From NCBI GenBank assembly GCA_039024555.1, contig JBCCQQ010000006.1, positions 32,001 through 96,000 of the forward strand: a stretch of 64,000 bases of DNA. Reading direction: 5' to 3'. Positions within the stretch are counted from its first letter, which is position 1, and each line of letters begins with the position of its first letter. Positions 38,226-50,240 of this stretch are shown here, piece after piece. The position numbers and the translations under genes are program-made. Origin of the DNA: Cyanobacteria bacterium P01_D01_bin.156. Its GTDB lineage: Bacteria > Cyanobacteriota > Cyanobacteriia > Phormidesmidales > Phormidesmidaceae. A model generated the notes under the pieces. It was given only the letters and a program-made list of their open reading frames with translations, was not told the DNA's origin and did no database searches.

Positions 38226-40205
38226 ATGAACACTTTTCTAGCGCTTCTAGTCAATCAGATTGTTGGCACTTTGTTTCAAGATGCACCTGAAATTGAAGAC
38301 CTTGGTGATATCTTCATTGGTGGCAATGGAGATGATAATCTCATAGGAGGCGATCAGGATGATATCTTCCTTAGTCAAGATGGTGATGACACCATTCTAG
38401 GCGGTGCCGGAACCGATATTGTTTTTGCTGACAAAGGTAAGGATACCGTTGTTGGACAAACCGGGAATGACGTCGCTTTTTTGGGAGCAGGCAATGACCG
38501 CTTTATTTGGAATAACGGTGATGGTAGCGACTTCATCAATGGCGGCTCAGGCTACGATACAACCCAAGTAAACGGTGCTGACGGTCCTGGCGATCAGTTT
38601 GACCTCAGGGCAGAGAACGGACGGGCGCTCTTTAATCGCCTCAATTTGGGCCTGTTTACTCTGACTAACGAGAGTATCGAGAAATTTGAGATTAATGGCC
38701 AGGGAGGCGATGACTCGTTAACGGTTGGAGATTTAACCGATAGCGATGTCAAAAAAGTGGTCTTTTCTGGGGGAGATGGCAATGACACTCTAGATGCCCG
38801 TGAAAGCTCCACAAAAATTAAGGCTAAAGGGGGTAAAGGAGATGACCTACTACTGGGTGGCTCCGCTGAAGATATCTTTCTTGCCGGTTCTGGTAACGAT
38901 ATTGTCGTCGGTCAGCGAGGAAATGATAGGGCTAACCTAGGCAGAGGCAATGACCGTTTTATTTGGAACAACGGTGACGGCAGTGACGTTATCAATGGTG
39001 CAGCAGGCTACGATACAACTCAGGTAAATGGTGCCGATGCCGCTGGAGATGAGTTTGAGCTTAGCCAAGAAAATGGTCGAGCAATTTTCAATCGTCTGAA
39101 CCTGGGGCTGTTTACGCTGACTAACAAAAGTATTGAACAGTTTGAGATTAACGGCCAGGGTGGCGATGATTCTTTAGCAGTAGGCGACCTGACCGACAGT
39201 GGCGTGCAAAAAGTCATCTTCTCAGGTGGCGAAGGTAATGATACGTTAGATGCCCGAGAAAGCACCACGACGATTGAAGTCTTTGGTGGTGATGGCGATG
39301 ACCTACTACTGGGGGGCTCAGCTGAAGATACCTTTTTTGCTGGAGCTGGTAATGATATTGTTGTGGGCCAGCGCGGTAACGATACCGCAGACTTAGGGGA
39401 TGGTGACGACCGCTTTATCTGGAATAACGGTGACGGCAGCGACTTTATCAATGGTGCAGATGGGTTTGATGTGACCCAGGTGAATGGTGCCGATGGTCCT
39501 GGCGATGAGTTTGACCTAAGCCAGGTGGATGGTCAGGCTATTTTTAATCGTCTCAATCTAGGATTGTTTACCCTTACTAACGAGGGTATTGAACAGTTTG
39601 AGATCAATGGCCAGGGTGGGAATGATTCGCTTACCATCAACGATCTGACCGGTAGTGACGTCCAGTCCGTACTCTTCTCCGGCGGCGATGGCAATGATTT
39701 CTTAAATGCTAGCGGTACATTTACTCCAGTTACTGCTGATGGTGGCGATGGCAATGATATTCTCATCGGTGGTGCCGGTGACGATATTCTGATTGGTGGT
39801 AATGGGTCCGACTTACTCATTGGGGGTGCCGGTAACAACATTCTGATCGGTGGCAATGGGGCTGATTTCTTTGGCTTTGATACCGGTGCTGTCTTTGATG
39901 CCGATGATATTGGCACGAATCAGATCCAAAACTATGAAGCTATCGACACCATTGTGCTGGATCTTACTGTCTTTGCTCAGTTAACCAGTGCCGTGGGGGG
40001 TGCCCTATCTGCCAGTGAGTTTGCAGTGGTCAATAGCGCCGAAGAAGCGGCTCTCAGTGATGCTCTAATTATCTACGGTGCCGATACCGGAAACCTCTAC
40101 TACAACGCCAATGGTGGTGAAGAGGGCTTTGGTAACGGTGCTCACTTTGCCACCATTGAAGGTGCACCCACCTTGGATGCCAATAGCTTTGTTATTCAGG
40201 CGTAG
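38226..40205 (+). CDS. RTX-type calcium-binding secreted protein with ~152-aa internal repeats
   Basis: Many GGxGxD nonapeptides; DRFIWNNGDGSD recurs at 38496, 38952 and 39408 (456-bp period); cyanobacterial RTX C-terminus (G.LYYN.NG...GFG.G..FA). Confidence 0.9.
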   Translation: MNTFLALLVNQIVGTLFQDAPEIEDLGDIFIGGNGDDNLIGGDQDDIFLSQDGDDTILGGAGTDIVFADKGKDTVVGQTGNDVAFLGAGNDRFIWNNGDGSDFINGGSGYDTTQVNGADGPGDQFDLRAENGRALFNRLNLGLFTLTNESIEKFEINGQGGDDSLTVGDLTDSDVKKVVFSGGDGNDTLDARESSTKIKAKGGKGDDLLLGGSAEDIFLAGSGNDIVVGQRGNDRANLGRGNDRFIWNNGDGSDVINGAAGYDTTQVNGADAAGDEFELSQENGRAIFNRLNLGLFTLTNKSIEQFEINGQGGDDSLAVGDLTDSGVQKVIFSGGEGNDTLDARESTTTIEVFGGDGDDLLLGGSAEDTFFAGAGNDIVVGQRGNDTADLGDGDDRFIWNNGDGSDFINGADGFDVTQVNGADGPGDEFDLSQVDGQAIFNRLNLGLFTLTNEGIEQFEINGQGGNDSLTINDLTGSDVQSVLFSGGDGNDFLNASGTFTPVTADGGDGNDILIGGAGDDILIGGNGSDLLIGGAGNNILIGGNGADFFGFDTGAVFDADDIGTNQIQNYEAIDTIVLDLTVFAQLTSAVGGALSASEFAVVNSAEEAALSDALIIYGADTGNLYYNANGGEEGFGNGAHFATIEGAPTLDANSFVIQA

Positions 40206-41549: not shown

Positions 41550-43826
41550 ATGACCTCATCTGGTAAGCCTCAACCCAAGCAACCAGCCAGTGAGCAATTA
41601 GCAGACATGGTTCTTAAGGTGGTCAGAACTGGCGGGATTGCTGGTGGTGGCATTGGTGCGTTTTGGCAGCTGTTTCTAAATAGCGATATCCCAAAGGCAA
41701 TTGCATCATTGGTAATCGGTGCTGGCCTTTCCTATGGTGCTAAGTTGTTGATGCCCGTCCATAAAGGAAATGAGAAACGGGCGGAACAGGCTGGAAAAGC
41801 TATCAATGAAGGCATTGATCAAGTCTTTGACCAGATTACTAACCAGGTGATTGCGGCAGCAACTGGGTTTGAGAATAAGTACTTGCTGTGTCAGGCGGCA
41901 GAATGTCAGGCGTTTCGTTCTGAGGGCATGGCCCAGCATGATGGCATTTTTATTCCGCTATTGACGGAAGTATTTGTGCCGTTGGAGCTAGACTCTAGCG
42001 CTATGCAAGCAGGCTTTCACTCGCTAATGCTGGATAGAAATCAAACAAGCCAACGGGAGCTAACTATTTGGACCTTTTTAGCCCAGGCACAAAAGACACC
42101 CACATTTCGTCAGCTAGCCATTCTAGCTTGGGGTGGCTACGGTAAGACCACGCTGTTGCGGCACATTGCTTTTCGCTACGGCACTAAACAGATTCCTAAA
42201 GGAGCACCAAAGTTCATCCCTGTCCTACTGATCCTCAGACAGTATAAGGATTTACTCGCTCAGGATAATCCTCCTGACTTACCACAGTTCATCACTGACC
42301 ATCACCTACCAGATTTGCCCGGTGCCGATAATCTAAAACCACCCAAGGATTGGGCATTGAACCTTCTCAAAAGTGGTCGAGCATTGGTAATGTTGGACGG
42401 CTTTGATGAAGTTGGTACAGATCAGCGTTCAAACGTGGCTAAATGGTTAACGGCTCAAATGCGCCGCTATGGTCAGGCAGTCTTTTTGCTCACATCTCGT
42501 CCCAAAGCTTATAGAGAACAAAAAGCAGGCGCAAGGTTGCAGTTAAGTACATCCCTGTGGGTAAGAGACTTTAATGAGTTACAGAGAAAACAGTTTGTTA
42601 CCCGTTGGTATGAGTGCCAAGAACGTTATGCCAATGCTGGGCGAGAAACCCCAGATGTCAAAAAAACAGCAGATCGTGCATCCCAAAATTTACTTGCACA
42701 AATTGAATCTCAGCAGGCTCTGAAGGATTTGGCAAAAAATCCTTTGTTGCTCAATATGATTGTCACCTTCCATCGCCGGGTGCCAGGTGCGGAACTACCT
42801 AAGCGCAAGGTAGAACTGTATCGAGAAATTTGTCAGCTGCAGTTACTAGACCGCCCTAGAGCTCGTGGTGTAGGGCCTTTGATGACCCAGTACAATGCCC
42901 AGGGGATTTTGCAACAGATTGCCTTTGCCATGATGCAGCGCCAGTGGAAAAGGATTGACCAAAAGGTATTACTGCAAGGGTTAAGTCAAATTATTAAACA
43001 ACAAGACGATCAGTTTTCGGCTAAGGATTTTTTGAAGGAAGTGGTGCAAATTAGTGAGCTGCTAGTAAAGCAAGAAGACCAATATGAATTTGCTCACCTA
43101 AGTTTTCAAGAGTATTTAGCGGCGGCCCATATTGCCCAGACTAGAAAGGAACAGGTACTGTATTCGCAGTTTGACAATGATTGGTGGAAGCCAACAATTT
43201 TACTCTATGCGGGGATAGTAAGTCCAACACAGTTGATGCGAGAGGCCGTTAATCAGGGAGCAACGGATCTGGCTTATCAGTGTTTACAGGAGACGACGAA
43301 GCAGGTGGATGCCTCCCTGGCAGCTGAGCTGAAAACTGTTAAGGCAGTTGTAGTAGATGCTCGCTATGCGAACTTAGAAACGTATTTGAAAAATGGCGAG
43401 TGGGAAAAGGCAGATAATGAAACCTATCGACTGATGATCACTACCGTTGGCAAAGAAGAGAACCAGTTCTTTGAAAACGAAGAACTACTCGAATTTCCCT
43501 GTGAGGAGCTAAAGACTATTGATCAGTTGTGGGTCACCCACAGTAAGGGCAAGTATGGTTTTAGCATACAAAAGAAAATTTATTTAAGCGTTGGTGGTGT
43601 AGCCGATGGCACATATAATGATGAGGCCCATAAACAATTTTGCGATTTAGTGGCTTGGCGAAAGGACGGTTCTTACAGGTTCGAAGATATATTGATGGAT
43701 GGAAGGGGGCCTCACGGACATCTCCCTCGCCCGGTCGTTCCCAGGTTTTGGTTTATAGATCTTATGGGGGTGCTTGGGGGGGGGGTTTGGTTTTTTTTGT
43801 CTCTTCTCTCGCATCGAGACTTGTAG
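41550..43826 (+). CDS. NACHT NTPase with C-terminal GUN4 domain
   Basis: Walker A GGYGKTT, Walker B LDGFDE, LTSR, NPLLL, FAHLSFQEY; GUN4 motifs W..AD.ET, FPC..L.TID.LW...S.G.YGFS.QK and GHLP. Confidence 0.88.
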   Translation: MTSSGKPQPKQPASEQLADMVLKVVRTGGIAGGGIGAFWQLFLNSDIPKAIASLVIGAGLSYGAKLLMPVHKGNEKRAEQAGKAINEGIDQVFDQITNQVIAAATGFENKYLLCQAAECQAFRSEGMAQHDGIFIPLLTEVFVPLELDSSAMQAGFHSLMLDRNQTSQRELTIWTFLAQAQKTPTFRQLAILAWGGYGKTTLLRHIAFRYGTKQIPKGAPKFIPVLLILRQYKDLLAQDNPPDLPQFITDHHLPDLPGADNLKPPKDWALNLLKSGRALVMLDGFDEVGTDQRSNVAKWLTAQMRRYGQAVFLLTSRPKAYREQKAGARLQLSTSLWVRDFNELQRKQFVTRWYECQERYANAGRETPDVKKTADRASQNLLAQIESQQALKDLAKNPLLLNMIVTFHRRVPGAELPKRKVELYREICQLQLLDRPRARGVGPLMTQYNAQGILQQIAFAMMQRQWKRIDQKVLLQGLSQIIKQQDDQFSAKDFLKEVVQISELLVKQEDQYEFAHLSFQEYLAAAHIAQTRKEQVLYSQFDNDWWKPTILLYAGIVSPTQLMREAVNQGATDLAYQCLQETTKQVDASLAAELKTVKAVVVDARYANLETYLKNGEWEKADNETYRLMITTVGKEENQFFENEELLEFPCEELKTIDQLWVTHSKGKYGFSIQKKIYLSVGGVADGTYNDEAHKQFCDLVAWRKDGSYRFEDILMDGRGPHGHLPRPVVPRFWFIDLMGVLGGGVWFFLSLLSHRDL
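43766..43798 (+). repeat. Homopolymer cluster (G5, G10, T8) in the GUN4 C-terminal coding region
   Basis: G5 at 43766-43770, G10 at 43776-43785, T8 at 43791-43798. Confidence 0.85.
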
Positions 43827-43903
43827 ACTGTAACAGATAAGCGCTACAGCCCGATCTAAACTTTCTTAAACACAGTCTCTACATACCAATCCTCGTTGTT
43901 TCG

Positions 43904-44680
43904 TCAATTCGTTACCTGGTACCCTGCTAGCTCTCTTGCCAGGTCTGGGTTATAGGCATTGGCCATCAAAAAACGTTCCGTGATATTCTGAATTTCCTCC
44001 ATAGGAGCATCCCATTCTTGCCATAGAGATTTTTGACCAGGGCTAACTTTTTTCTTGGGCTTACCCTTCAATTTCATCCTTGCTAGCAATGTATTTCCCC
44101 AGTAATTTCGCTTTTCTGGCTTTGGCCTTGGTCGATACCGCTCACAAAATTTACGATATATCGTTGCACAGATTTCCAAGGTCGCTCCCAATGCCATAAA
44201 TGCCAGGTGCCATTCGGTAATACCATCCTGGGTCAACCGTTCATAGGTTCCATAATTGCTGAAATCATAGAAAAAGCCCTGCTGCATATTGGCAGCCTTT
44301 GGGTTCCCATGGATATAGCGAATCGTATTCAATGCTCTTCGAGTATCGCTCATCTCAAAGCCGCTGCTGTGATACCGCTTTTCCCAAAAGTGCCCTGTCC
44401 GGTTCAACATTCGGTTAAAACACATGGCACTATACCAGTTCAGCCAGTGCATAATTTTCGGTAACTCTTCTGGCTGCTGCGGCTTTAACAAATAATGGAC
44501 ATGATTGCTCATAATGCACAGAGCATAGAGCCTGAAACCATATTTTTCTCGGCACTTTTGAAGTGCATATAACAATACAGAACGACATTCATACCGCGTC
44601 AATCGAAACTCTCGATTATTGCATCGTATTGTTACGTGACAACAAAGATTAGGACGTAAGTCCCTCAGTTTACGGGCCAT
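43904..44680 (-). CDS. HUH Y1 transposase, RAYT-like (IS200 superfamily)
   Basis: MAR..R......HVTIRCNNR, CIMSNHVH (HUH), R.GHFW..RY and catalytic RYIH.NP. Confidence 0.87.
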   Translation of the reverse strand: MARKLRDLRPNLCCHVTIRCNNREFRLTRYECRSVLLYALQKCREKYGFRLYALCIMSNHVHYLLKPQQPEELPKIMHWLNWYSAMCFNRMLNRTGHFWEKRYHSSGFEMSDTRRALNTIRYIHGNPKAANMQQGFFYDFSNYGTYERLTQDGITEWHLAFMALGATLEICATIYRKFCERYRPRPKPEKRNYWGNTLLARMKLKGKPKKKVSPGQKSLWQEWDAPMEEIQNITERFLMANAYNPDLARELAGYQVTN

Positions 44681-44777: not shown

Positions 44778-47700
44778 TCAAAGAAATGTTGCCTGTGTGC
44801 ATTTAAGACTCTCATTATTTTGAGGGAGTATGATTTCAAAATCTGTTGTTCCACTTTCTGCTGAATTCACAGTTAATGTGCCTGCATGTTTTCGAATAAT
44901 GGAATAGCTTACAAATAACCCAAGCCCTTTCCCCTGACCCACTGGTTTTGTTGTAAAGAAAGGCTCAAAGATTTGCTTCTGAAGTTGTTCTGGAATAACA
45001 CTGTTAGTATTGGAAATAATAATCTTCACTTTCCCAGACAAAGCCTGCTCAGTGCGAATCCGAATCTCAGGGGTATCGTCAACACAGGTATTTTCCCGAA
45101 TGGCATCGATTGCATTATTGATGATGTTCAAAAACACTTGGTTGAGCTGATTGGGGTAACACACAACTTTAGGTAATTGAGTATACTGCCGCGTAATTCT
45201 AATTTCCGGTTGCTCGCCTAATGCTTGTAGGCGGTTATTCAAAACTAAGAGGGTACTTTCAATTCCACTATGCAAATTAACAGCTTTAACAGCAGCCTGA
45301 TCTAATCGTGAGAAGTTTCGTAGACTTTGAACAATTTCGTTGATTCTTTCACTACCCACTTCAATAGAGTCCAAAATACTATTGATATCCAAAAATATAT
45401 CATCAGGTTCAATCGCGTTAATTTTTGACTGAAGAGATGGACTAGGTTGAGAATACTCATCCTGATAACTATGGAACAAATCCTGTAAATCTTTAATATA
45501 GTCTTGTAGATGAGGAACATTGCCCATAATAAATCCCACTGGATTATTGATTTCATGGGAAATTCCTGCAACTAGCTGTCCTAGTGATGACATCTTTTCA
45601 GCATGAATAAGATGGGCTTGAGTTTGCTGTAATGTTTGCAATGTTTGTTGCAGATCATTGGCTTTGCGATGAAGATCTTGGGTCTTTTGTTCAACTTCTT
45701 TTTCCAGTTTTTGAGAGTAGTTTTCTGCCTGCTGATATAAGCGGGCATTTTCAATAGAAATCGCTGCCTGACTTGCTAAAAATTGCAAGACTTCTACCCG
45801 TTCATCTGTGAATGCCCCCACCATCAAATTGTTTTCTAAATAGAGCACTCCAATCGTCTTATTCTGGAGTTTTACAGGTATACACAAAACCGACTTAGGT
45901 TTCTGGGTAAGAATATAAGGATCGGCGACAAACTGCTCATCGGCACTCAAGAATTCGAACACAGCTTTCTCTTGAGTCCGGATGACTGAGTAAACAAGAC
46001 GTTTGGGAAGACCTAAATAATGCTCTAAAGAAATATCTATTCGGTTTACCTGATTGGGGGTTGCTTCAACCACTACAGTCCATTGATTATTTTGATAAAG
46101 GAGCAAGTGACCAACTTGTGCTCCTGCATTTGCGATAACTAGATTCATCAAGGTTGTTAGCAATTTCCCAAATTCAATTTCCTGCGAAATTGCTTGCGCC
46201 GCATTTAAGATCGTTGGAATATCCAGTAAACTCTCAATTCCTTGCTTAATACTCAAAGTAGAGTAACCCTCACCTTGGTCTTTGCCCAGCAATTCTACTG
46301 AATAAAAATTTGTCTTCAAGAGATTGGGATAACGCTGTTCCAAGTGATTGAGTTTTGCTTTAGCCCCCCATCGTTTATAGCCATCATAAGCATCTTGTAG
46401 GTAGCCAACGGCCGCTTTTTTCTTGTCCCAATTCAAATAAAATCTGGCAGCTAGTTCATTCGCAAGAGCTTCTTCATAAAGACAATGCTGGGCTCTCGAC
46501 TGTGCGATCGCTTGCTCGTAAGAATCAATAGCGTCAGCATACTGACCAGACAACTTTAATTTCTCTGCTTGAACTAGCAAACATTTATGAGATATATTCT
46601 CAGGGCAGTCTTGCTCCCACTCCTTCAATTTTTTCTCTAGGAGCAAAACTTCTTGCCAATGAGATTTTCGTACCTCTTTATTGTTAGAGACTTCGAAAAT
46701 TGACAAATGCATTAATGCCGCATAGAAAACACTAGAAGGAACCTTTGCATGGCTAGGAATTGTATCCTCAATAATGCTTAACTTAGAAATTAAATCTGCA
46801 TATATGTCCTGCTGGTCAAAGAGGTAGGCATGGCGAATTTTAACAGAATAGAACCAAGCTAGATGATAAGGACTATTGTCATATTTGTGGCAGAAGCTGG
46901 CTTCGTTAAAACTTGTATCATCAAAGCTCTCGACTGTTGTTGTCAGTCCCAGTAAATGGCGAATGGGTTGAATAACACCCACAATCAAAGCATCGCGATT
47001 TTCTAGGCTTTTGATGCGATATAGAAAATCTGAATGGGCTTGAGCTGTTTGATATAACTCCTCCAAGTTTTGACCGTATGTTAATCGGTCCGAACTACTT
47101 AGCATCATTGTAAAGCTCACTGTTAGCCAGTTTCCAGCTTGCATCCCTTGCCTGAGGGCCTCTTCATAGTACACATCCGCTTCTTTAAGAGGGCGGCTCC
47201 AGCTATGAACATCGGCTGCGAATAAGAAATTGGTCATGCCACAAATGTCGGCATTATCAAACTGATCACAAAGGGCAACAGCCGTAGCACCAAAGTGATA
47301 CGCCATAGCAGCATTTCCAAGAAGTGTATTGGCAATTAACCCAAAGCCAACATAGCCAAAGGGAGACATATCACTGTTGCCATGCTGCAGTGATATGGTC
47401 GTCATTTTTGCTAGGGCAAGATACGCTAACTTTGATTGACCATCTAACCATGCTGCATAGAAAAGAACCTGCAAAATGCGTAGCATTTCTGCCACATTCT
47501 CATTCTGCATGATAGGCAAATCAATAATCGATTGGATTGAATTGTGGTTTAGAAAATGTACAACAGCTTCAATCTCACACTTTAACGCTGCATCTAAGTC
47601 AATATCATTTTTGGGTACCGGCCATCCCAATAGTTCAAGACTTTGACGCTGAATAGCAATGGCTTCCTTATTTCTTCCCTGAAGCTGATATTGAGTCATC

Positions 47701-50240
47701 TGCACTCGGTAAATCATGGCTTTGTCGAGTGCCGTTTGCGAATGATCAATAGCTAAAGCATATAGGGTTTCTGCTTGCTCAAAATTGCCACAAAGATAGG
47801 TAGCTTCAGCACCGGCATAATGCAATTGGAACATCAGAGAGTAATCAGTTTGCCAAACCTTTTCAGACAAACAATCAATACCCATAGAGTAATATTGCGC
47901 CGCTACTTCATAGGCGGATGAGGCCTTAGCCTTTTGGCCAGCTTGTAAATTGAGCTTCGCTACCGCTAGCGTCTCTTGAGGAGAAGAAATGAAATTTCGA
48001 CCTAGATTAAACTGATTGACAATAGAAAATAATTGTTCTTCTTTCTGCCTTTGAGAAAACCCTTGTAACAGCAATCGACCAATTTGAAGATGAGTACTTT
48101 GCTTTTGATTATCTGGAATCAATGTGTAGGCAGCTTGTTGAATCCGGTCATGTAAAAATCGGTATCGAATAGCACCATATTCGCCATCGCTTGTGTCATT
48201 TCCCTCCAGATAAAATGCATGTGACGAAGAGTCAGAAAGAATAAACCCCTCTTGAAGACTAATCCATAGTTTCTGGTTGACCGATTCCAGAGCCTCTTCA
48301 CAAATAATCGCTAATGTCTCTAAATCAAAATTGTTACCGATGCAGGCAGATAACTTGAGAACAGTCTGTGTGTCTTGCGGTAGTTTTTGTAAACGACTTA
48401 CCATAAACTGAACGACATTATCCGTCAGAGATAACTGTTGAACAGCACTAAGATCGCACTGCCAACACCTCATATCGCTATTAAAATAAATATTGTTGTC
48501 TCTATGTAAGCCTTTGATAAATTGAATAGTAAAGAAAGGATTTCCCTTTGTCTTACGATGAATTAGCTCAGATAAAGACACTGAGACTGCCGATGGACAC
48601 ATCATCGTATCAGTAATCAAATCAGTAATGTCTCCCTTCGTCAAAAGAGATAACATCATCGTATGAATGACTTTGCCATCTTCTCTCAGGGTATCTAATA
48701 GCCTAATCAAAGGATGGGCAGGATACACCTCGTTATCCCGATAGGCTCCTAATAATAAGAGATACCCCGCTTCTGATTCATCCATAAGAAGCTGAATCAA
48801 ACTCAATGATGCAGAATCTGCCCATTGTAGGTCATCTAAAAAGATAACGAGAGGATGCTCCTTCTTTGTGAAAAGCCTGACAAACTTGCCAAATAATAAA
48901 TTGAATCGATTCTGTTCTGCACCACCGGACAGTTTTATCGTAGGGGGCTGAGGGCCGACGATACATTCTAATTCGGGAATAACATCCGTAATAACTTGCC
49001 CACTATCTCCTAATGCAGATAATATTTTTGTTCTCCAGTGGGTTAGTTCTGCCTCCGATTCCCCAATTAATTGTTCGATCAATCCACGAAATGCCTGTAC
49101 AAATGCAGAGAAAGGTCTATCTTTGTGGAATTGATCAAATTTCCCCTGAATAAAATATCCTTTTTGTCGAGTAATCGGTTTATGAACTTCATTAATAACC
49201 GTTGTTTTACCAATGCCAGAACATCCTGACACCAACATAATTTCTGAGTTACCTTGGGTAACTCGATCAAACGTATTCAATAGACATTGCACTTCTAATT
49301 CTCGGCCATAAAGCTTCTCAGAAATCAAAAAACGATTGCTGATATCTTCTTGTCCAATCTCAAATGGTTCAATCTTTTGAGTTGTCTGAACCTGATGCAA
49401 GCAATTCTCTAAATCATATTTAAGCCCTAAACTACTCTGGTAACGATCTTCCGCATTCTTCGCCATCAGCTTATGAACAATTTGCGAAACGATCGGCGGG
49501 ATGGATTCATTGATATGGTGCAGCGGTTTGGGGATTTGGGCCAAATGACAATGCACTAGTTCTAAGGGAACCATCGATAAGAAGGGAAGTCTGCCCGTAG
49601 CTAATTCATAGAGGGTAACTCCAAGACTATAAAAATCAGTACGATAGTCGATTCCCCTGTTCATTCGTCCAGTTTGTTCTGGAGCTAAATAGGATAGAGT
49701 CCCTTCTAAACTGTTGGGCTTATTTAAGGCTTGCAATTCATAAGATAATAATGAGGCCATACCAAAATCAATGAGCCTGACTTGCTTAGATTGAGGATGG
49801 ATAATGATATTCCCAGGATTAATATTTTTATGAATGATTCGGCATTGATATAAATTATGTAAAATTTCTGAAAGCTGGATAGCAATCTTCAAAGTATCGA
49901 CAAGGGATAAAGAGAATTGCTTCACATAGTCTCTTAGAGCAATACTATTGTAATCTTCCATCACCAAGGCATAACTATTTTCACGTAGCTCAAGGCTAGC
50001 GGCATGAACAATACCAGGAATGAGAAGATTCTTGGTGATCTTATATTCGTTTCGTAATAGCTGCTGTTGTCTAAGGGTTAGATATTCGTCACGCAATAAC
50101 TTAATGACAACAGTTCGGCCCTGACTCTCTTGAATAGCCTGATAAACAATTATTTTTGGGCTACTGTAAAGAGGCTTAGTAGGTGTATATCCAGATAGTT
50201 GAGGCAAGCTATTGTGTTGATAACTGGGAAGCAAGGCCAT
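44778..50240 (-). CDS. Multisensor Ser/Thr kinase-like / AAA ATPase / GAF / histidine kinase (HstK-type)
   Basis: Kinase domain (DFG, YLAPEQTGRMN), GCSGIGKT, LDDLQWAD, GNPFF, FLHDRIQQAAY, GAF (LYLENN) and SHEINNP. Confidence 0.93.
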   Translation of the reverse strand: MALLPSYQHNSLPQLSGYTPTKPLYSSPKIIVYQAIQESQGRTVVIKLLRDEYLTLRQQQLLRNEYKITKNLLIPGIVHAASLELRENSYALVMEDYNSIALRDYVKQFSLSLVDTLKIAIQLSEILHNLYQCRIIHKNINPGNIIIHPQSKQVRLIDFGMASLLSYELQALNKPNSLEGTLSYLAPEQTGRMNRGIDYRTDFYSLGVTLYELATGRLPFLSMVPLELVHCHLAQIPKPLHHINESIPPIVSQIVHKLMAKNAEDRYQSSLGLKYDLENCLHQVQTTQKIEPFEIGQEDISNRFLISEKLYGRELEVQCLLNTFDRVTQGNSEIMLVSGCSGIGKTTVINEVHKPITRQKGYFIQGKFDQFHKDRPFSAFVQAFRGLIEQLIGESEAELTHWRTKILSALGDSGQVITDVIPELECIVGPQPPTIKLSGGAEQNRFNLLFGKFVRLFTKKEHPLVIFLDDLQWADSASLSLIQLLMDESEAGYLLLLGAYRDNEVYPAHPLIRLLDTLREDGKVIHTMMLSLLTKGDITDLITDTMMCPSAVSVSLSELIHRKTKGNPFFTIQFIKGLHRDNNIYFNSDMRCWQCDLSAVQQLSLTDNVVQFMVSRLQKLPQDTQTVLKLSACIGNNFDLETLAIICEEALESVNQKLWISLQEGFILSDSSSHAFYLEGNDTSDGEYGAIRYRFLHDRIQQAAYTLIPDNQKQSTHLQIGRLLLQGFSQRQKEEQLFSIVNQFNLGRNFISSPQETLAVAKLNLQAGQKAKASSAYEVAAQYYSMGIDCLSEKVWQTDYSLMFQLHYAGAEATYLCGNFEQAETLYALAIDHSQTALDKAMIYRVQMTQYQLQGRNKEAIAIQRQSLELLGWPVPKNDIDLDAALKCEIEAVVHFLNHNSIQSIIDLPIMQNENVAEMLRILQVLFYAAWLDGQSKLAYLALAKMTTISLQHGNSDMSPFGYVGFGLIANTLLGNAAMAYHFGATAVALCDQFDNADICGMTNFLFAADVHSWSRPLKEADVYYEEALRQGMQAGNWLTVSFTMMLSSSDRLTYGQNLEELYQTAQAHSDFLYRIKSLENRDALIVGVIQPIRHLLGLTTTVESFDDTSFNEASFCHKYDNSPYHLAWFYSVKIRHAYLFDQQDIYADLISKLSIIEDTIPSHAKVPSSVFYAALMHLSIFEVSNNKEVRKSHWQEVLLLEKKLKEWEQDCPENISHKCLLVQAEKLKLSGQYADAIDSYEQAIAQSRAQHCLYEEALANELAARFYLNWDKKKAAVGYLQDAYDGYKRWGAKAKLNHLEQRYPNLLKTNFYSVELLGKDQGEGYSTLSIKQGIESLLDIPTILNAAQAISQEIEFGKLLTTLMNLVIANAGAQVGHLLLYQNNQWTVVVEATPNQVNRIDISLEHYLGLPKRLVYSVIRTQEKAVFEFLSADEQFVADPYILTQKPKSVLCIPVKLQNKTIGVLYLENNLMVGAFTDERVEVLQFLASQAAISIENARLYQQAENYSQKLEKEVEQKTQDLHRKANDLQQTLQTLQQTQAHLIHAEKMSSLGQLVAGISHEINNPVGFIMGNVPHLQDYIKDLQDLFHSYQDEYSQPSPSLQSKINAIEPDDIFLDINSILDSIEVGSERINEIVQSLRNFSRLDQAAVKAVNLHSGIESTLLVLNNRLQALGEQPEIRITRQYTQLPKVVCYPNQLNQVFLNIINNAIDAIRENTCVDDTPEIRIRTEQALSGKVKIIISNTNSVIPEQLQKQIFEPFFTTKPVGQGKGLGLFVSYSIIRKHAGTLTVNSAESGTTDFEIILPQNNESLKCTQATFL

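Follow-up and report, generated by a model that had tools for sequence, protein, structure and literature searches.

The NACHT-GUN4 gene (P0001), located at positions 41550-43826 of the plus strand in the analyzed window, a 64-kb stretch of DNA, raises the question of why a sensor gene should end in a variable G/T-rich stretch followed by DNA that closes all three reading frames, an arrangement for which no description was found in the literature searched. The open reading frame of 758 aa encodes a predicted NLR-like STAND NTPase with a C-terminal GUN4 sensor domain. The Pfam NACHT profile (PF05729) matches residues 196-354 with 55.9 bits (cut-off 26.7), and the GUN4 profile (PF05419) matches residues 603-727 with 105 bits (cut-off 29.2). 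The latter match spans profile positions 5-124 of 141 and leaves positions 125-141 uncovered. The GUN4 core (43356-43727, plus strand) extends to the GHLP anchor, which is encoded by GGACATCTCCCT at 43716-43727, and its alignment to residues 104-217 of the solved Gun4 structure 1z3x stops one residue past this anchor. The GUN4 domain of this protein is incomplete, in that the arginines of the alpha6/alpha7 loop and the LLxHPxW segment are absent from both the profile and the 1z3x matches.

In canonical Gun4/Ycf53 (1y6i, 1z3x), according to excerpts of Verdecia 2005 (PMC1084334), the alpha6/alpha7 loop after GHLP holds the porphyrin via Leu210, Arg214 and Arg217, with Arg214 being essential for binding. 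Past GHLP the canonical proteins read LxNQLRGVxxxxxLLxHPxW. The core fold up to GHLP is common to canonical Gun4 and the fusion proteins, whereas in the latter the segment with Leu210, Arg214 and Arg217 is a variable spacer, and the final LLxHPxW segment is out of frame in two thirds of the genes. As judged from the 1z3x alignment and these excerpts, the spacer takes the place of the porphyrin-contacting loop, including Arg214, in agreement with the first-pass annotation, which had assigned the variable stretch to a loop of the sensor domain.

At this locus the spacer occupies positions 43728-43799 (plus strand; 72 nt) and consists of 5 A, 29 T, 28 G and 10 C, while A makes up 26.8% of the whole window. 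It contains the tracts G5 (43765-69), G10 (43776-85) and T8 (43791-98), the last two being the only homopolymers of at least 8 nt in the entire window. The spacer is followed by the constant block TCTCTTCTCTCGCATCGAGACTTGTAGACTGTAACAGATAA (43800-43840, plus strand; 41 nt), whose 5' edge, at 43800, is sharp and which closes each of the three frames with a stop, at 7-nt intervals (TAG at 43824-26, TAA at 43831-33 and TAA at 43838-40). The T at 43800, lying between the 72-nt segment and the 40-mer quoted in the first-pass annotation, is a part of the conserved block. Otherwise the GHLP codons, the five-adenine segment, its tracts and the stop coordinates had been given correctly to the base, and translation reproduces the endings proposed for the current frame (SLLSHRDL*), for a 1-nt deletion (LFSRIETCRL*) and for a 1-nt insertion (SSLASRLVDCNR*), so that every frame terminates within about 8-13 codons.

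The gene end described here is a single copy of a module that is spread over the whole phylum of cyanobacteria and common to their GUN4 fusion proteins (NACHT-, caspase-, kinase-, TPR- and TIR-GUN4). The module begins with the GUN4 core as far as GHLP and continues with a G/T-rich spacer, the 41-nt block, about 85 nt of conserved non-coding DNA and, here, a gene encoding a Y1 protein. An exact match to a 21-mer of the tail occurs at at least 118 loci in other cyanobacterial genomes, and 64 of the 401 genomes sampled contain it with at most one mismatch, against 0 matches for the reversed control pattern, a recurrence that exceeds chance. The genome under study has four copies of the block, every one at the end of a GUN4 gene; of the 18 regions in it that passed the filter for G/T-rich gene ends, none except the one described here is a comparable gene tail.

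The tail is indeed constant DNA read in different frames, as had been supposed. At 118 loci collected by means of the block itself, frames 0, 1 and 2 are used 34, 47 and 37 times, respectively, and the corresponding numbers are 15, 8 and 28 in a sample of 51 loci found through N-terminal peptides, independently of the tail. The three types of protein endings, quoted in the first-pass annotation, are real: the 120 homologues retrieved by protein search fall into them as 44, 33 and 26, with 17 unclassified (mostly partial or diverged). A stop is kept at the three stop places in 181, 184 and 149 of 195 loci, and the variation there is mostly among TAA, TAG and TGA, with TGG observed once in 195. 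Moreover, stops are retained where they are not used, namely the second and third ones in 31 and 28 of the 34 frame-0 genes, and the first two in 34 and 34 of the 37 frame-2 genes.

Conservation of the block shows no 3-periodicity. Coding constraint was rejected on this ground, and conservation outside the stops thus requires some reader at the DNA level. Conservation extends likewise over 24 nt ahead of the first stop and 85 nt beyond the last one. The non-coding continuation (43841-43925, plus strand) ends in GTTACCTGGTACC (43911-43923) and overlaps the last codons of the Y1 open reading frame, and 22 loci retain the block up to the edge at 43925 with no Y1 gene beyond. An RNA element was rejected, as no Rfam match was obtained at E <= 1 and RNAalifold, applied to the plus-strand alignment of 69 blocks, gave -0.64 kcal/mol with 3 invariant pairs and no consensus hairpin; a promoter or terminator within the block was rejected as well, since the scan found neither there. 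In an alignment of the block with the 3' end of the canonical gun4 in this genome, 23 of 31 bases match, with one gap, and the canonical LLxHPxW motif is similar to the frame-0 ending SLLSHP(D/G)L; by this similarity, the block seems to be derived from the end of the ancestral gun4.

The spacers range in length from 25 to 131 nt. The frequencies in 150 distinct spacers are G.40, T.32, A.16 and C.11 (GC skew +0.57), and codon periodicity is absent (G.42/.39/.42 by codon position), while the adjacent GUN4 coding DNA is periodic as normal. Exact tandem duplications are present in 72 of 186 spacers, compared to the mean of 23 and the maximum of 33 in shuffles. Homopolymer runs show only mild enrichment, with runs of at least 6 nt in 44 and of at least 8 nt in just 9 of the 150 spacers, and thus simple slippage is not the general mode of change. 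Long homopolymer tracts, noted at this locus in the first-pass annotation, are not a feature of the family. No composition gradient, a possible sign of addition from one end, was found along the spacer. A pool of shared cassettes was rejected: a 12-mer is shared by 53 of 11,175 spacer pairs (24.5 in shuffles), and the shared words are of low complexity, GGTGGTGG-like. Off-frame stops occur in about half of the spacers (76 and 71 of 150), the same as in their shuffled versions, and hence selection for three-frame openness was rejected too. In view of these stops, and of the one within the spacer in an off-frame of the NACHT-GUN4 gene itself, the earlier proposal that the tail tolerates any indel was too strong.

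The stretch before the tail is hypervariable both in length and in sequence between close relatives, as had been predicted. In pairs with 88-95% identical upstream DNA, which are mutually non-independent, the spacer length differs in 42 of 42 cases, and the spacer identity is below 0.6 in 39 of 42. The spacers differ even in one pair with 99.7% identical flanks, and a full replacement is seen between L231 and L232 at the flank identity of 97.6%. Six paralogous copies in two related genomes (G109 and G402) have the last 40 nt of GUN4 identical and the downstream DNA 99% identical, with six unrelated spacers in between. Whole replacement, as in L231/L232 and in these copies, suggests single rewriting events rather than stepwise drift. 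In protein clusters formed at 90% identity, all eight spacers of cluster 4 and all four of cluster 10 are distinct, while spacers are identical within six of nine clusters, and two trios whose flanks are 100% identical agree in spacer sequence and tract length too. The turnover is therefore episodic, not constant. Of the diversification cassette suggested in the first-pass annotation, the turnover between relatives is borne out, but the active or programmed change is not, as identical flanks carry identical spacers.

The nearest orthologues of the NACHT-GUN4 gene in 41 related genomes are 72-80% identical, and at such distance single steps are invisible. In one of them (L139 of G001) the alignment spans the spacer region, yet the spacer is unalignable, and in another one (L129 of G007) the match ends at GHLP. 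The two Logan contigs of the best run over 43300-44300 meet at 43789, within G10/T8, and none spans the junction; contigs cannot reveal population variation, and poly-G is error-prone.

We give about an even chance to the reading that the G-rich loop DNA turns over by itself, with the block kept as DNA and the Y1 gene dispensable. According to it, the loop codons of the fusion proteins would have been replaced by G-rich, C-poor DNA of low complexity, which would change via local insertion, deletion and tandem duplication, occasionally by total replacement, and far faster than the DNA on either flank, so that the spacer length and the reading frame would drift without constraint. The former coding DNA of the final segment would survive as the constant 41-nt block, maintained as DNA and not as codons. 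Due to the stop in each frame, every outcome would end in 8-12 codons with no antisense run into the next gene. The turnover probably stems from the inherent instability of the G-rich tract and its repair; it may alter what the sensor binds, and the stops are likely what selection keeps. Counting against this reading, we know of no passive process that yields the GC skew of +0.57 and the depletion of A in a sharp-edged stretch of 25-131 nt. The rarity of long homopolymer runs, the whole-spacer replacements, the conservation of the block outside the stops and the episodic course of the turnover speak against it as well. Y1 would be unneeded for the turnover, being a specific neighbor of a module that also exists without it, but the fact that intact Y1 is found almost only at GUN4 gene ends is hard to reconcile with Y1 having no role.

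The Y1 gene (43904-44680, minus strand) is convergent to the NACHT-GUN4 gene and encodes an intact RAYT-like HUH tyrosine nuclease/transposase of 258 aa; this most specific neighbor of such gene ends was missed in the first-pass annotation. The protein scores 65.4 bits with Pfam Y1_Tnp (cut-off 23), and its translation contains the HUH motif NHVH and the catalytic-tyrosine motif RYIHGNP, while the scores with the NCBIfam models REP_Tyr_transpos (NF047646; 61.3 bits, cut-off 80) and IS200 (NF033573; 22.7 bits, cut-off 55) are below the cut-offs, and no sequence match to solved structures was found. Its closest known relatives are RAYT/TnpA-REP proteins of subclass 2.1, corresponding to Bertels group 1, for which excerpts of Quentin et al. 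2018 (PMC6006769) give the motifs NHVH, W[EQ] and Y[IV]HLNP and a length of about 238 aa. Y1 has NHVH, WE and YIHxNP and, like the subclass as described in these excerpts, is characterized by low copy number, no associated REP hairpins and no assigned cell function. The differences are the score under the RAYT cut-off, the lack of a match to solved structures, and the fixed position, convergent on GUN4 gene ends, which these excerpts do not mention; the word GUN4 has 0 occurrences in that paper. Neither a copy of the block in inverted orientation on the far side of the Y1 gene, as in the REPtron layout, nor REP hairpins flanking Y1 and dispersed in the genome were found.

A possible, though doubtful, alternative is programmed diversification by Y1, independent of reverse transcriptase: Y1 would recognize the block and nick single-stranded DNA at 43799/43800, untemplated or locally templated G-rich repair would rewrite the loop, the three-frame stops would make each junction translatable, and the spacers of Y1-free genomes would be frozen remains of past activity. 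The distribution of Y1 argues for it. All three copies in this genome, 26 of 30 loci in 28 other genomes, and both copies in G241 adjoin GUN4 gene ends, and among the four loci with no GUN4 match, L265-L267 are poorer matches to the query (44-47% identity or residues 1-200 only), while L258 has the tail and only 630 nt beyond Y1. The Y1 open reading frames are intact, most of them having no internal stops. The 5' edge of conservation is invariant and sharp, and five to six Y1 units of G109/G402, 99% identical, start exactly at the block edge beside the six unrelated spacers. Moreover, the variable cluster 10 includes L064 with an intact adjoining Y1 (a metagenome scan with a degenerate pattern found no close relatives of L064), and duplications on the GHLP side, e.g. 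GHLPFDIIYLKVVGHLPFDIIYL, resemble repair scars.

Against the action of Y1, no Y1 match (E <= 1e-15) was obtained in 39 of the 64 genomes with the block, and the spacers of these genomes are equally G/T-rich, so a role of Y1 in spacer rewriting is only hypothetical. The G/T content is 0.72 with Y1 in the genome (32 tails, 12 genomes) and 0.73 without it (55 tails, 39 genomes; p = 0.40), with no dependence on Y1 adjoining the gene either (p = 0.33), and Y1 as the source of the G/T richness was rejected on these grounds. The spacers of close relatives differ also with no Y1 within 2.5 kb. The block contains no covarying conserved hairpin, and no polymerase partner was identified. As there is zero conservation directly 5' of the block edge, no target or cleavage motif is visible. 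We regard as rather improbable the general form of this proposal, a retroelement-independent diversifier of NLR-like, caspase and kinase sensors in which a domesticated Y1 cuts the block edge, repair writes a G-rich loop of arbitrary length, and the three-frame stop keeps the junctions productive.

Simple-sequence contingency loci provide phase variation by slipped-strand mispairing, including switches of the C-terminus at 3' ends. A switch of this kind at this locus, with slipped-strand mispairing or transcriptional slippage in G10/T8 toggling three C-terminal isoforms, is unlikely. Like contingency loci, the gene has indel-prone coding tracts with a change of frame after the tract: a long homopolymer inside the coding region is found at 43776-43798, both G10 and T8 lie at most 25 nt from the block, all frames stop within the short distance given above, and runs of G9-G12 are also present at L064, L025, L030 and L231. 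On the other hand, most family members have no long tracts, relatives are separated by whole-spacer changes, including duplication or replacement of tens of bases, and not by steps of +/-1, and the tract lengths are constant in the two trios with identical flanks. The module also yields protein in all frames, with no on/off switch, and to our knowledge contingency loci have no counterpart to a phylum-wide constant block with three stops.

We consider it very unlikely that Y1 is a selfish site-specific passenger unrelated to the spacer, for which the block is a safe landing place. Its patchy occurrence (at 7 of 29 loci when sampling was unbiased and at 31 of 75 when it was motif-based), the frequent remnants (11 partial copies, and 13 genomes with remnants only) and the near-identical multiple copies in G109/G402 would fit a passenger. 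The far end, however, is undefined, as Y1 copies cease to be similar at varying points, 30-183 nt ahead of the start codon, and there are no terminal inverted repeats, hairpins or target motif. The copies in this genome are merely 66-82% identical, 99% identity being observed in G109/G402 only. The curated score far under the IS200 cut-off, the ends with no defining hairpins and the lack of near-identical copies in this genome all set Y1 apart from IS200/IS605 elements.

Finally, a classical diversity-generating retroelement (DGR) target, suggested by the A-poor 3' end of a sensor gene with a conserved boundary behind it, like a variable region with its IMH, and an assembly artefact, suggested by the proneness of poly-G tracts to errors on some sequencers, are together scarcely credible, since the genome (99.08% complete, 149 contigs) has no RVT_1 match (controls matched in 3 of 14 genomes) and no second copy of 43728-43799 (blastn, word sizes 7-9), a DGR variable region retains the template length, in contrast to the spacers, and the architecture recurs across hundreds of independent assemblies. 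The DGR is excluded by the lack of reverse transcriptase and template copy and by the variable spacer lengths; the first-pass annotation, which had seen no support for a DGR in the window, is thus upheld genome-wide.

Still, the module resembles DGRs in several respects. According to excerpts of Vallota-Eastman 2020 (PMC7517822) and Kaur 2020 (PMC7159879), DGRs vary multidomain sensors of cyanobacteria, so that in both cases variation is localized in the C-terminal ligand-binding part of kinase-, caspase- or NACHT-type proteins of the same organisms, with a constant DNA boundary 3' of an A-poor variable part. As far as these excerpts describe DGRs, the differences are the change of A to any nucleotide at a fixed length, as opposed to variation of the spacers in length and entire sequence, and the C-type lectin/FGS fold in place of GUN4; in addition, the GUN4 module does not preserve the reading frame.

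An analogy can also be drawn with the junctional diversity of antigen receptors. In the N regions of V(D)J junctions, variable-length G-rich sequence is found at a fixed junction made with the participation of a transposase-derived nuclease. The same elements are found here where an immune-type receptor has its ligand-binding loop, with a transposase-derived nuclease gene associated. However, variation of the GUN4 module is known from inherited genomes compared between lineages, cleavage, hairpin and template-independent polymerase are known from the V(D)J side, and out-of-frame outcomes, discarded in V(D)J, are rescued here by the three-frame stops.

Through GUN4 fusions, the death and immunity modules of cyanobacteria are thought to perceive tetrapyrroles or the changes that viruses induce in photosynthesis, as stated in excerpts of PMC7159879 and bioRxiv 10.1101/2022.07.19.500537. 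The stretch of fast turnover in these sensors is the very loop by which canonical Gun4 holds the porphyrin; hence either the canonical porphyrin binding is lost, or the ligand pocket is being varied, and either changes how the sensors are interpreted. A block with stops in three frames, kept across cyanobacterial orders whichever frame is used, is an unusual gene design, and it would explain three unrelated C-terminus "families" annotated on one domain. The near-exclusive pairing with GUN4 ends is the first concrete context for a RAYT-like subclass with no assigned function. Should this pairing be causal, a protein would be diversified locally in a new manner that needs no reverse transcriptase, and diversification by Y1, if true, would be a bacterial counterpart of the junctional diversity of antigen receptors.

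The NACHT-GUN4 gene (41550-43826, 758 aa, protein P0001) ends exactly as the first-pass annotation had described it. The GHLP codons (43716-43727, plus strand) are followed by a 72-nt A-poor spacer (A 5, T 29, G 28, C 10) with G5, G10 and T8 tracts, the last two being the only homopolymers of at least 8 nt in the whole 64-kb window. In the next 41 nt, TAG, TAA and TAA, spaced by 7 nt, close the three frames, and the three readings of this tail end in SLLSHRDL, LFSRIETCRL and SSLASRLVDCNR (frames 0, 1 and 2), each before a stop. The first 190 residues of P0001 (41550-42120), before NACHT, contain glycine-rich hydrophobic stretches (GGIAGGGIGAFWQLFL..., LVIGAGLSYGAKLLMP) and have no Pfam match; this N-terminal part may be a membrane-active effector. 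A 659-aa protein with eight matches to the RTX calcium-binding nonapeptide repeat is encoded at 38226-40205 (plus strand).

Besides a single canonical gun4, the genome has five further GUN4 genes. The same DNA as that from position 43800 onward ends four of these five (78-88% identity), the matched parts of the proteins being only 35-46% identical. The tail is read as SLLSH... in three of the four, and one base over, as LFSRIQACKV before the stop, in the gene on contig C21. The stretch from G(H/N/S)LP to the tail is G/T-rich in all four genes and differs among them in both length and sequence. One more locus is a GUN4 pseudogene interrupted by four in-frame stops (L007, G000:C83:1470-1769), and an 898-aa GUN4 protein (L004, G000:C121:4502-4885) ends in IFSRIAVH without a DNA match to the constant block; this ending resembles a frame-1 tail that has decayed.

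An exact 21-mer of the tail was found at no fewer than 118 loci, nearly all from cyanobacteria of several orders. A tblastn GUN4 match is present at 105 of the 118 listed loci, and several of the other 13 have less than 150 nt of upstream sequence. When up to one mismatch is allowed, 64 of 401 genomes drawn from across the phylum contain the 21-mer; the non-photosynthetic and picocyanobacterial families in this sample are not among them, and a reversed-pattern control gave no matches in the same 401 genomes. One exact copy lies in a non-cyanobacterial assembly (L079, a contig of a Bryobacterales MAG), in a GC-rich ORF context with no GUN4 beside it, and could be due to chance, contamination or transfer.

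The ORF enters the tail in frames 0, 1 and 2 at 34, 47 and 37 loci, respectively, among the 118 matches listed. As this set was collected with the tail itself, two further samples were collected without it. Among 120 proteins found by a GUN4-region search, 44, 33 and 26 have endings of the three types, confirming those named in the first-pass annotation; the remaining 17 are mostly partial or diverged. Among 79 metagenome loci found via N-terminal peptides of a NACHT-GUN4 protein, 62 extend at least 200 nt beyond GUN4, and 48 of these have the tail (at most 7 mismatches of 32), the other 14 mostly having a second variant of it; frames 0, 1 and 2 are used at 15, 8 and 28 of 51 loci. Hence the conserved DNA tail, as had been proposed, is read in all three frames in the tail-based and in both tail-independent samples.

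Conservation of the block starts abruptly at TCT/CTTCTC (position 43800), is ungapped to about +65 and continues with small gaps to +122, closing in GTTACCTGGCACC. A stop codon stands at the three stop places in 181, 184 and 149 of 195 loci, with variation mainly among TAA, TAG and TGA, and the unused stops are retained as well as the used one; in genus g38 the tail is strongly diverged, and the three stops are nonetheless 7 nt apart. The block has no 3-periodicity outside the stops, no consensus RNA structure (one strand folded), no Rfam match and no promoter- or terminator-like site, and therefore it is conserved as DNA. It aligns with the 3' codons of the canonical gun4 of this genome at 23 of 31 bases with one 1-nt gap, and canonical Gun4 proteins end in LLxHPxW, resembling the frame-0 ending SLLSHP(D/G)L; this similarity suggests that the block derives from the 3' end of canonical gun4. 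In two of 69 blocks (L080 and L100; alignment A1, columns about 121-134) the near-invariant right-end motif GTTACCTGGCACC stands as its reverse complement GGTGCCAGGTAAC; the site may be active both ways round, or a short segment may have been inverted.

The 150 distinct spacers (25-131 nt, median 50) are composed of G.40, T.32, A.16 and C.11, with a GC skew of +0.57 and no end-to-end composition gradient. In some lineages A, not T, accompanies G; what stays constant is the high G and low C content. Codon periodicity is absent from the spacers and normal in the adjoining GUN4 coding DNA; therefore the bias comes from the making or mutation of DNA, not from amino acids. Exact tandem duplications are found in 72 of 186 spacers, three times the average of 23 in shuffles (33 at most). 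The excess of homopolymer runs is slight, and those of at least 8 nt occur in 9 of 150 spacers, the G10 and T8 of the window being a family extreme, not the rule. Since off-frame stops within spacers are as frequent as in shuffles, the description of the gene end as frameshift-proof is true of the block, with its stops in all frames, but not of the spacer as a whole. In P0190 (cluster 10), L306 (G277) and L161 (G398), either the tail is doubled in tandem or the spacer encloses part of an older tail, for example ...VLSHRDLLSVSSLASRLVNCSR; a 7-mer of the tail head inside a spacer is rare (3 of 150). Unrelated spacers (L017, L038, L066, L023, L205 and others) share GGTGGTGG-like words, which we take to resemble the E. 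coli Chi octamer.

The proposed hypervariability between GHLP and the tail is borne out by close relatives. Among 42 pairs (not independent) with upstream DNA 88-95% identical, no pair has spacers of equal length and 39 have a spacer identity below 0.6, the downstream non-coding DNA, where the block is retained, being 0.8-1.0 identical. In two trios, whose members may be the same strains, flanks that are 100% identical enclose identical spacers; at 99.7% flank identity two spacers of 54 and 38 nt are partly similar, and at 97.6% two spacers share nothing. Among protein clusters at 90% identity, spacers are identical in clusters 1, 2/5, 6, 7, 8 and 9, all different in clusters 4 (8/8) and 10 (4/4; one member has two tails in tandem), and of four kinds in the five members of cluster 3. 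In two related genomes (G109 and G402), six paralogous gene ends have the same final 40 nt of GUN4 and are 99% identical from the start of the block to the end of the next gene, Y1, yet no two of their six spacers (about 15-95 nt) are related. Given identity in some close sets and full difference in others, spacer change is fast but episodic.

Y1 (43904-44680, minus strand), an IS200-like HUH tyrosine gene absent from the first-pass annotation, directly follows the NACHT-GUN4 gene. Its 258-aa product (motifs NHVH, WE and YIHGNP) scores nearer to REP-associated transposases than to IS200, under both curated cut-offs, and has no match to solved structures by sequence. It fits the table entry of Quentin et al. 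(2018) for subclass 2.1, a subclass without REP and without known function. Directly upstream, on the same strand (44778-50240), lies a gene for an 1820-aa Ser/Thr kinase - AAA_16 - GAF - histidine kinase fusion, a further large signalling protein of the kind clustering with such sensors.

All three Y1 copies of this genome (66-82% mutual identity) converge on tail-type gene ends, and at 26 of 30 Y1 loci (28 genomes) a convergent GUN4 gene lies 170-460 nt from the Y1 3' end. Three exceptions (L265-L267) match the query more weakly (44-47% identity, or residues 1-200 only), and at the fourth (L258) the tail is present and the contig ends. From the GUN4 side Y1 is full, partial and absent at 20, 11 and 44 of 75 motif-found loci and at 4, 3 and 22 of 29 unbiased loci; of the 64 genomes with the block, Y1 is intact or almost full-length in 12, reduced to remnants in 13 and without a match at E <= 1e-15 in 39. 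Thus the link is nearly exclusive from the Y1 side and loose from the GUN4 side. The whole block is retained with unrelated DNA in place of Y1 at 22 loci, and only its first 20-53 nt at 25. With no fixed far end, no inverted repeat and no target motif at the block edge, the Y1 unit bears little resemblance to an ordinary insertion sequence. One genus has five to six GUN4-block-Y1 units (L352-L355, L359; G109:C1, G402:C2), three of them on a 146-kb second replicon, with Y1 parts 98.9-99.6% and adjoining GUN4 domains 85-94% identical, suggesting that the Y1 unit has lately spread, or undergone gene conversion, as far as the block edge.

GHLP marks the end of both the Pfam GUN4 match and the alignment with solved Gun4; in Synechocystis Gun4 it is followed by LLNQLRGVRVAES and then LYRHPVW. 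In the numbering of PMC1084334, these residues include Leu210, Arg214 and Arg217 of the alpha6/alpha7 loop; porphyrin is positioned over Leu210, and binding requires Arg214 (PMC1084334). Thus the spacer replaces the ligand-contacting loop, which supports the earlier suggestion of a hypervariable loop in the sensor domain.

Taken together, the porphyrin loop of GUN4 fusion sensors would have given way to G-rich DNA that is unstable locally and is rewritten as parts of it are duplicated, deleted or replaced; the block, by ending translation in any frame, would make all outcomes tolerable. Y1 is a specific neighbour. We consider this turnover, with Y1 not required, about evenly poised between right and wrong; the main points against it are a spacer composition that it does not account for, the sharpness of the edges and the near-confinement of Y1 to these gene ends. 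That Y1 nicks the block edge and so starts spacer rewriting seems rather improbable: spacer G/T content is the same with or without Y1 adjoining the gene (p = 0.33) and with or without Y1 in the genome (0.72 vs 0.73, p = 0.40), and spacers of close relatives differ even without Y1 within 2.5 kb. A diversity-generating retroelement, for which the first-pass annotation had seen no support, is ruled out by the lack of a reverse transcriptase in the 99%-complete genome, the lack of a template copy in it and the unfixed spacer lengths, and assembly error, which it had considered, is ruled out since hundreds of independent assemblies show the same layout. GUN4 fusions are already known (PMC7159879, PMC7517822, bioRxiv 10.1101/2022.07.19.500537); no description of the tail, spacer or Y1 link was found in titles, abstracts and passages of the literature on GUN4 fusions and RAYT in cyanobacteria. 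For the GUN4 fusion sensors, the replaced loop means that they either bind another thing or bind in another way.
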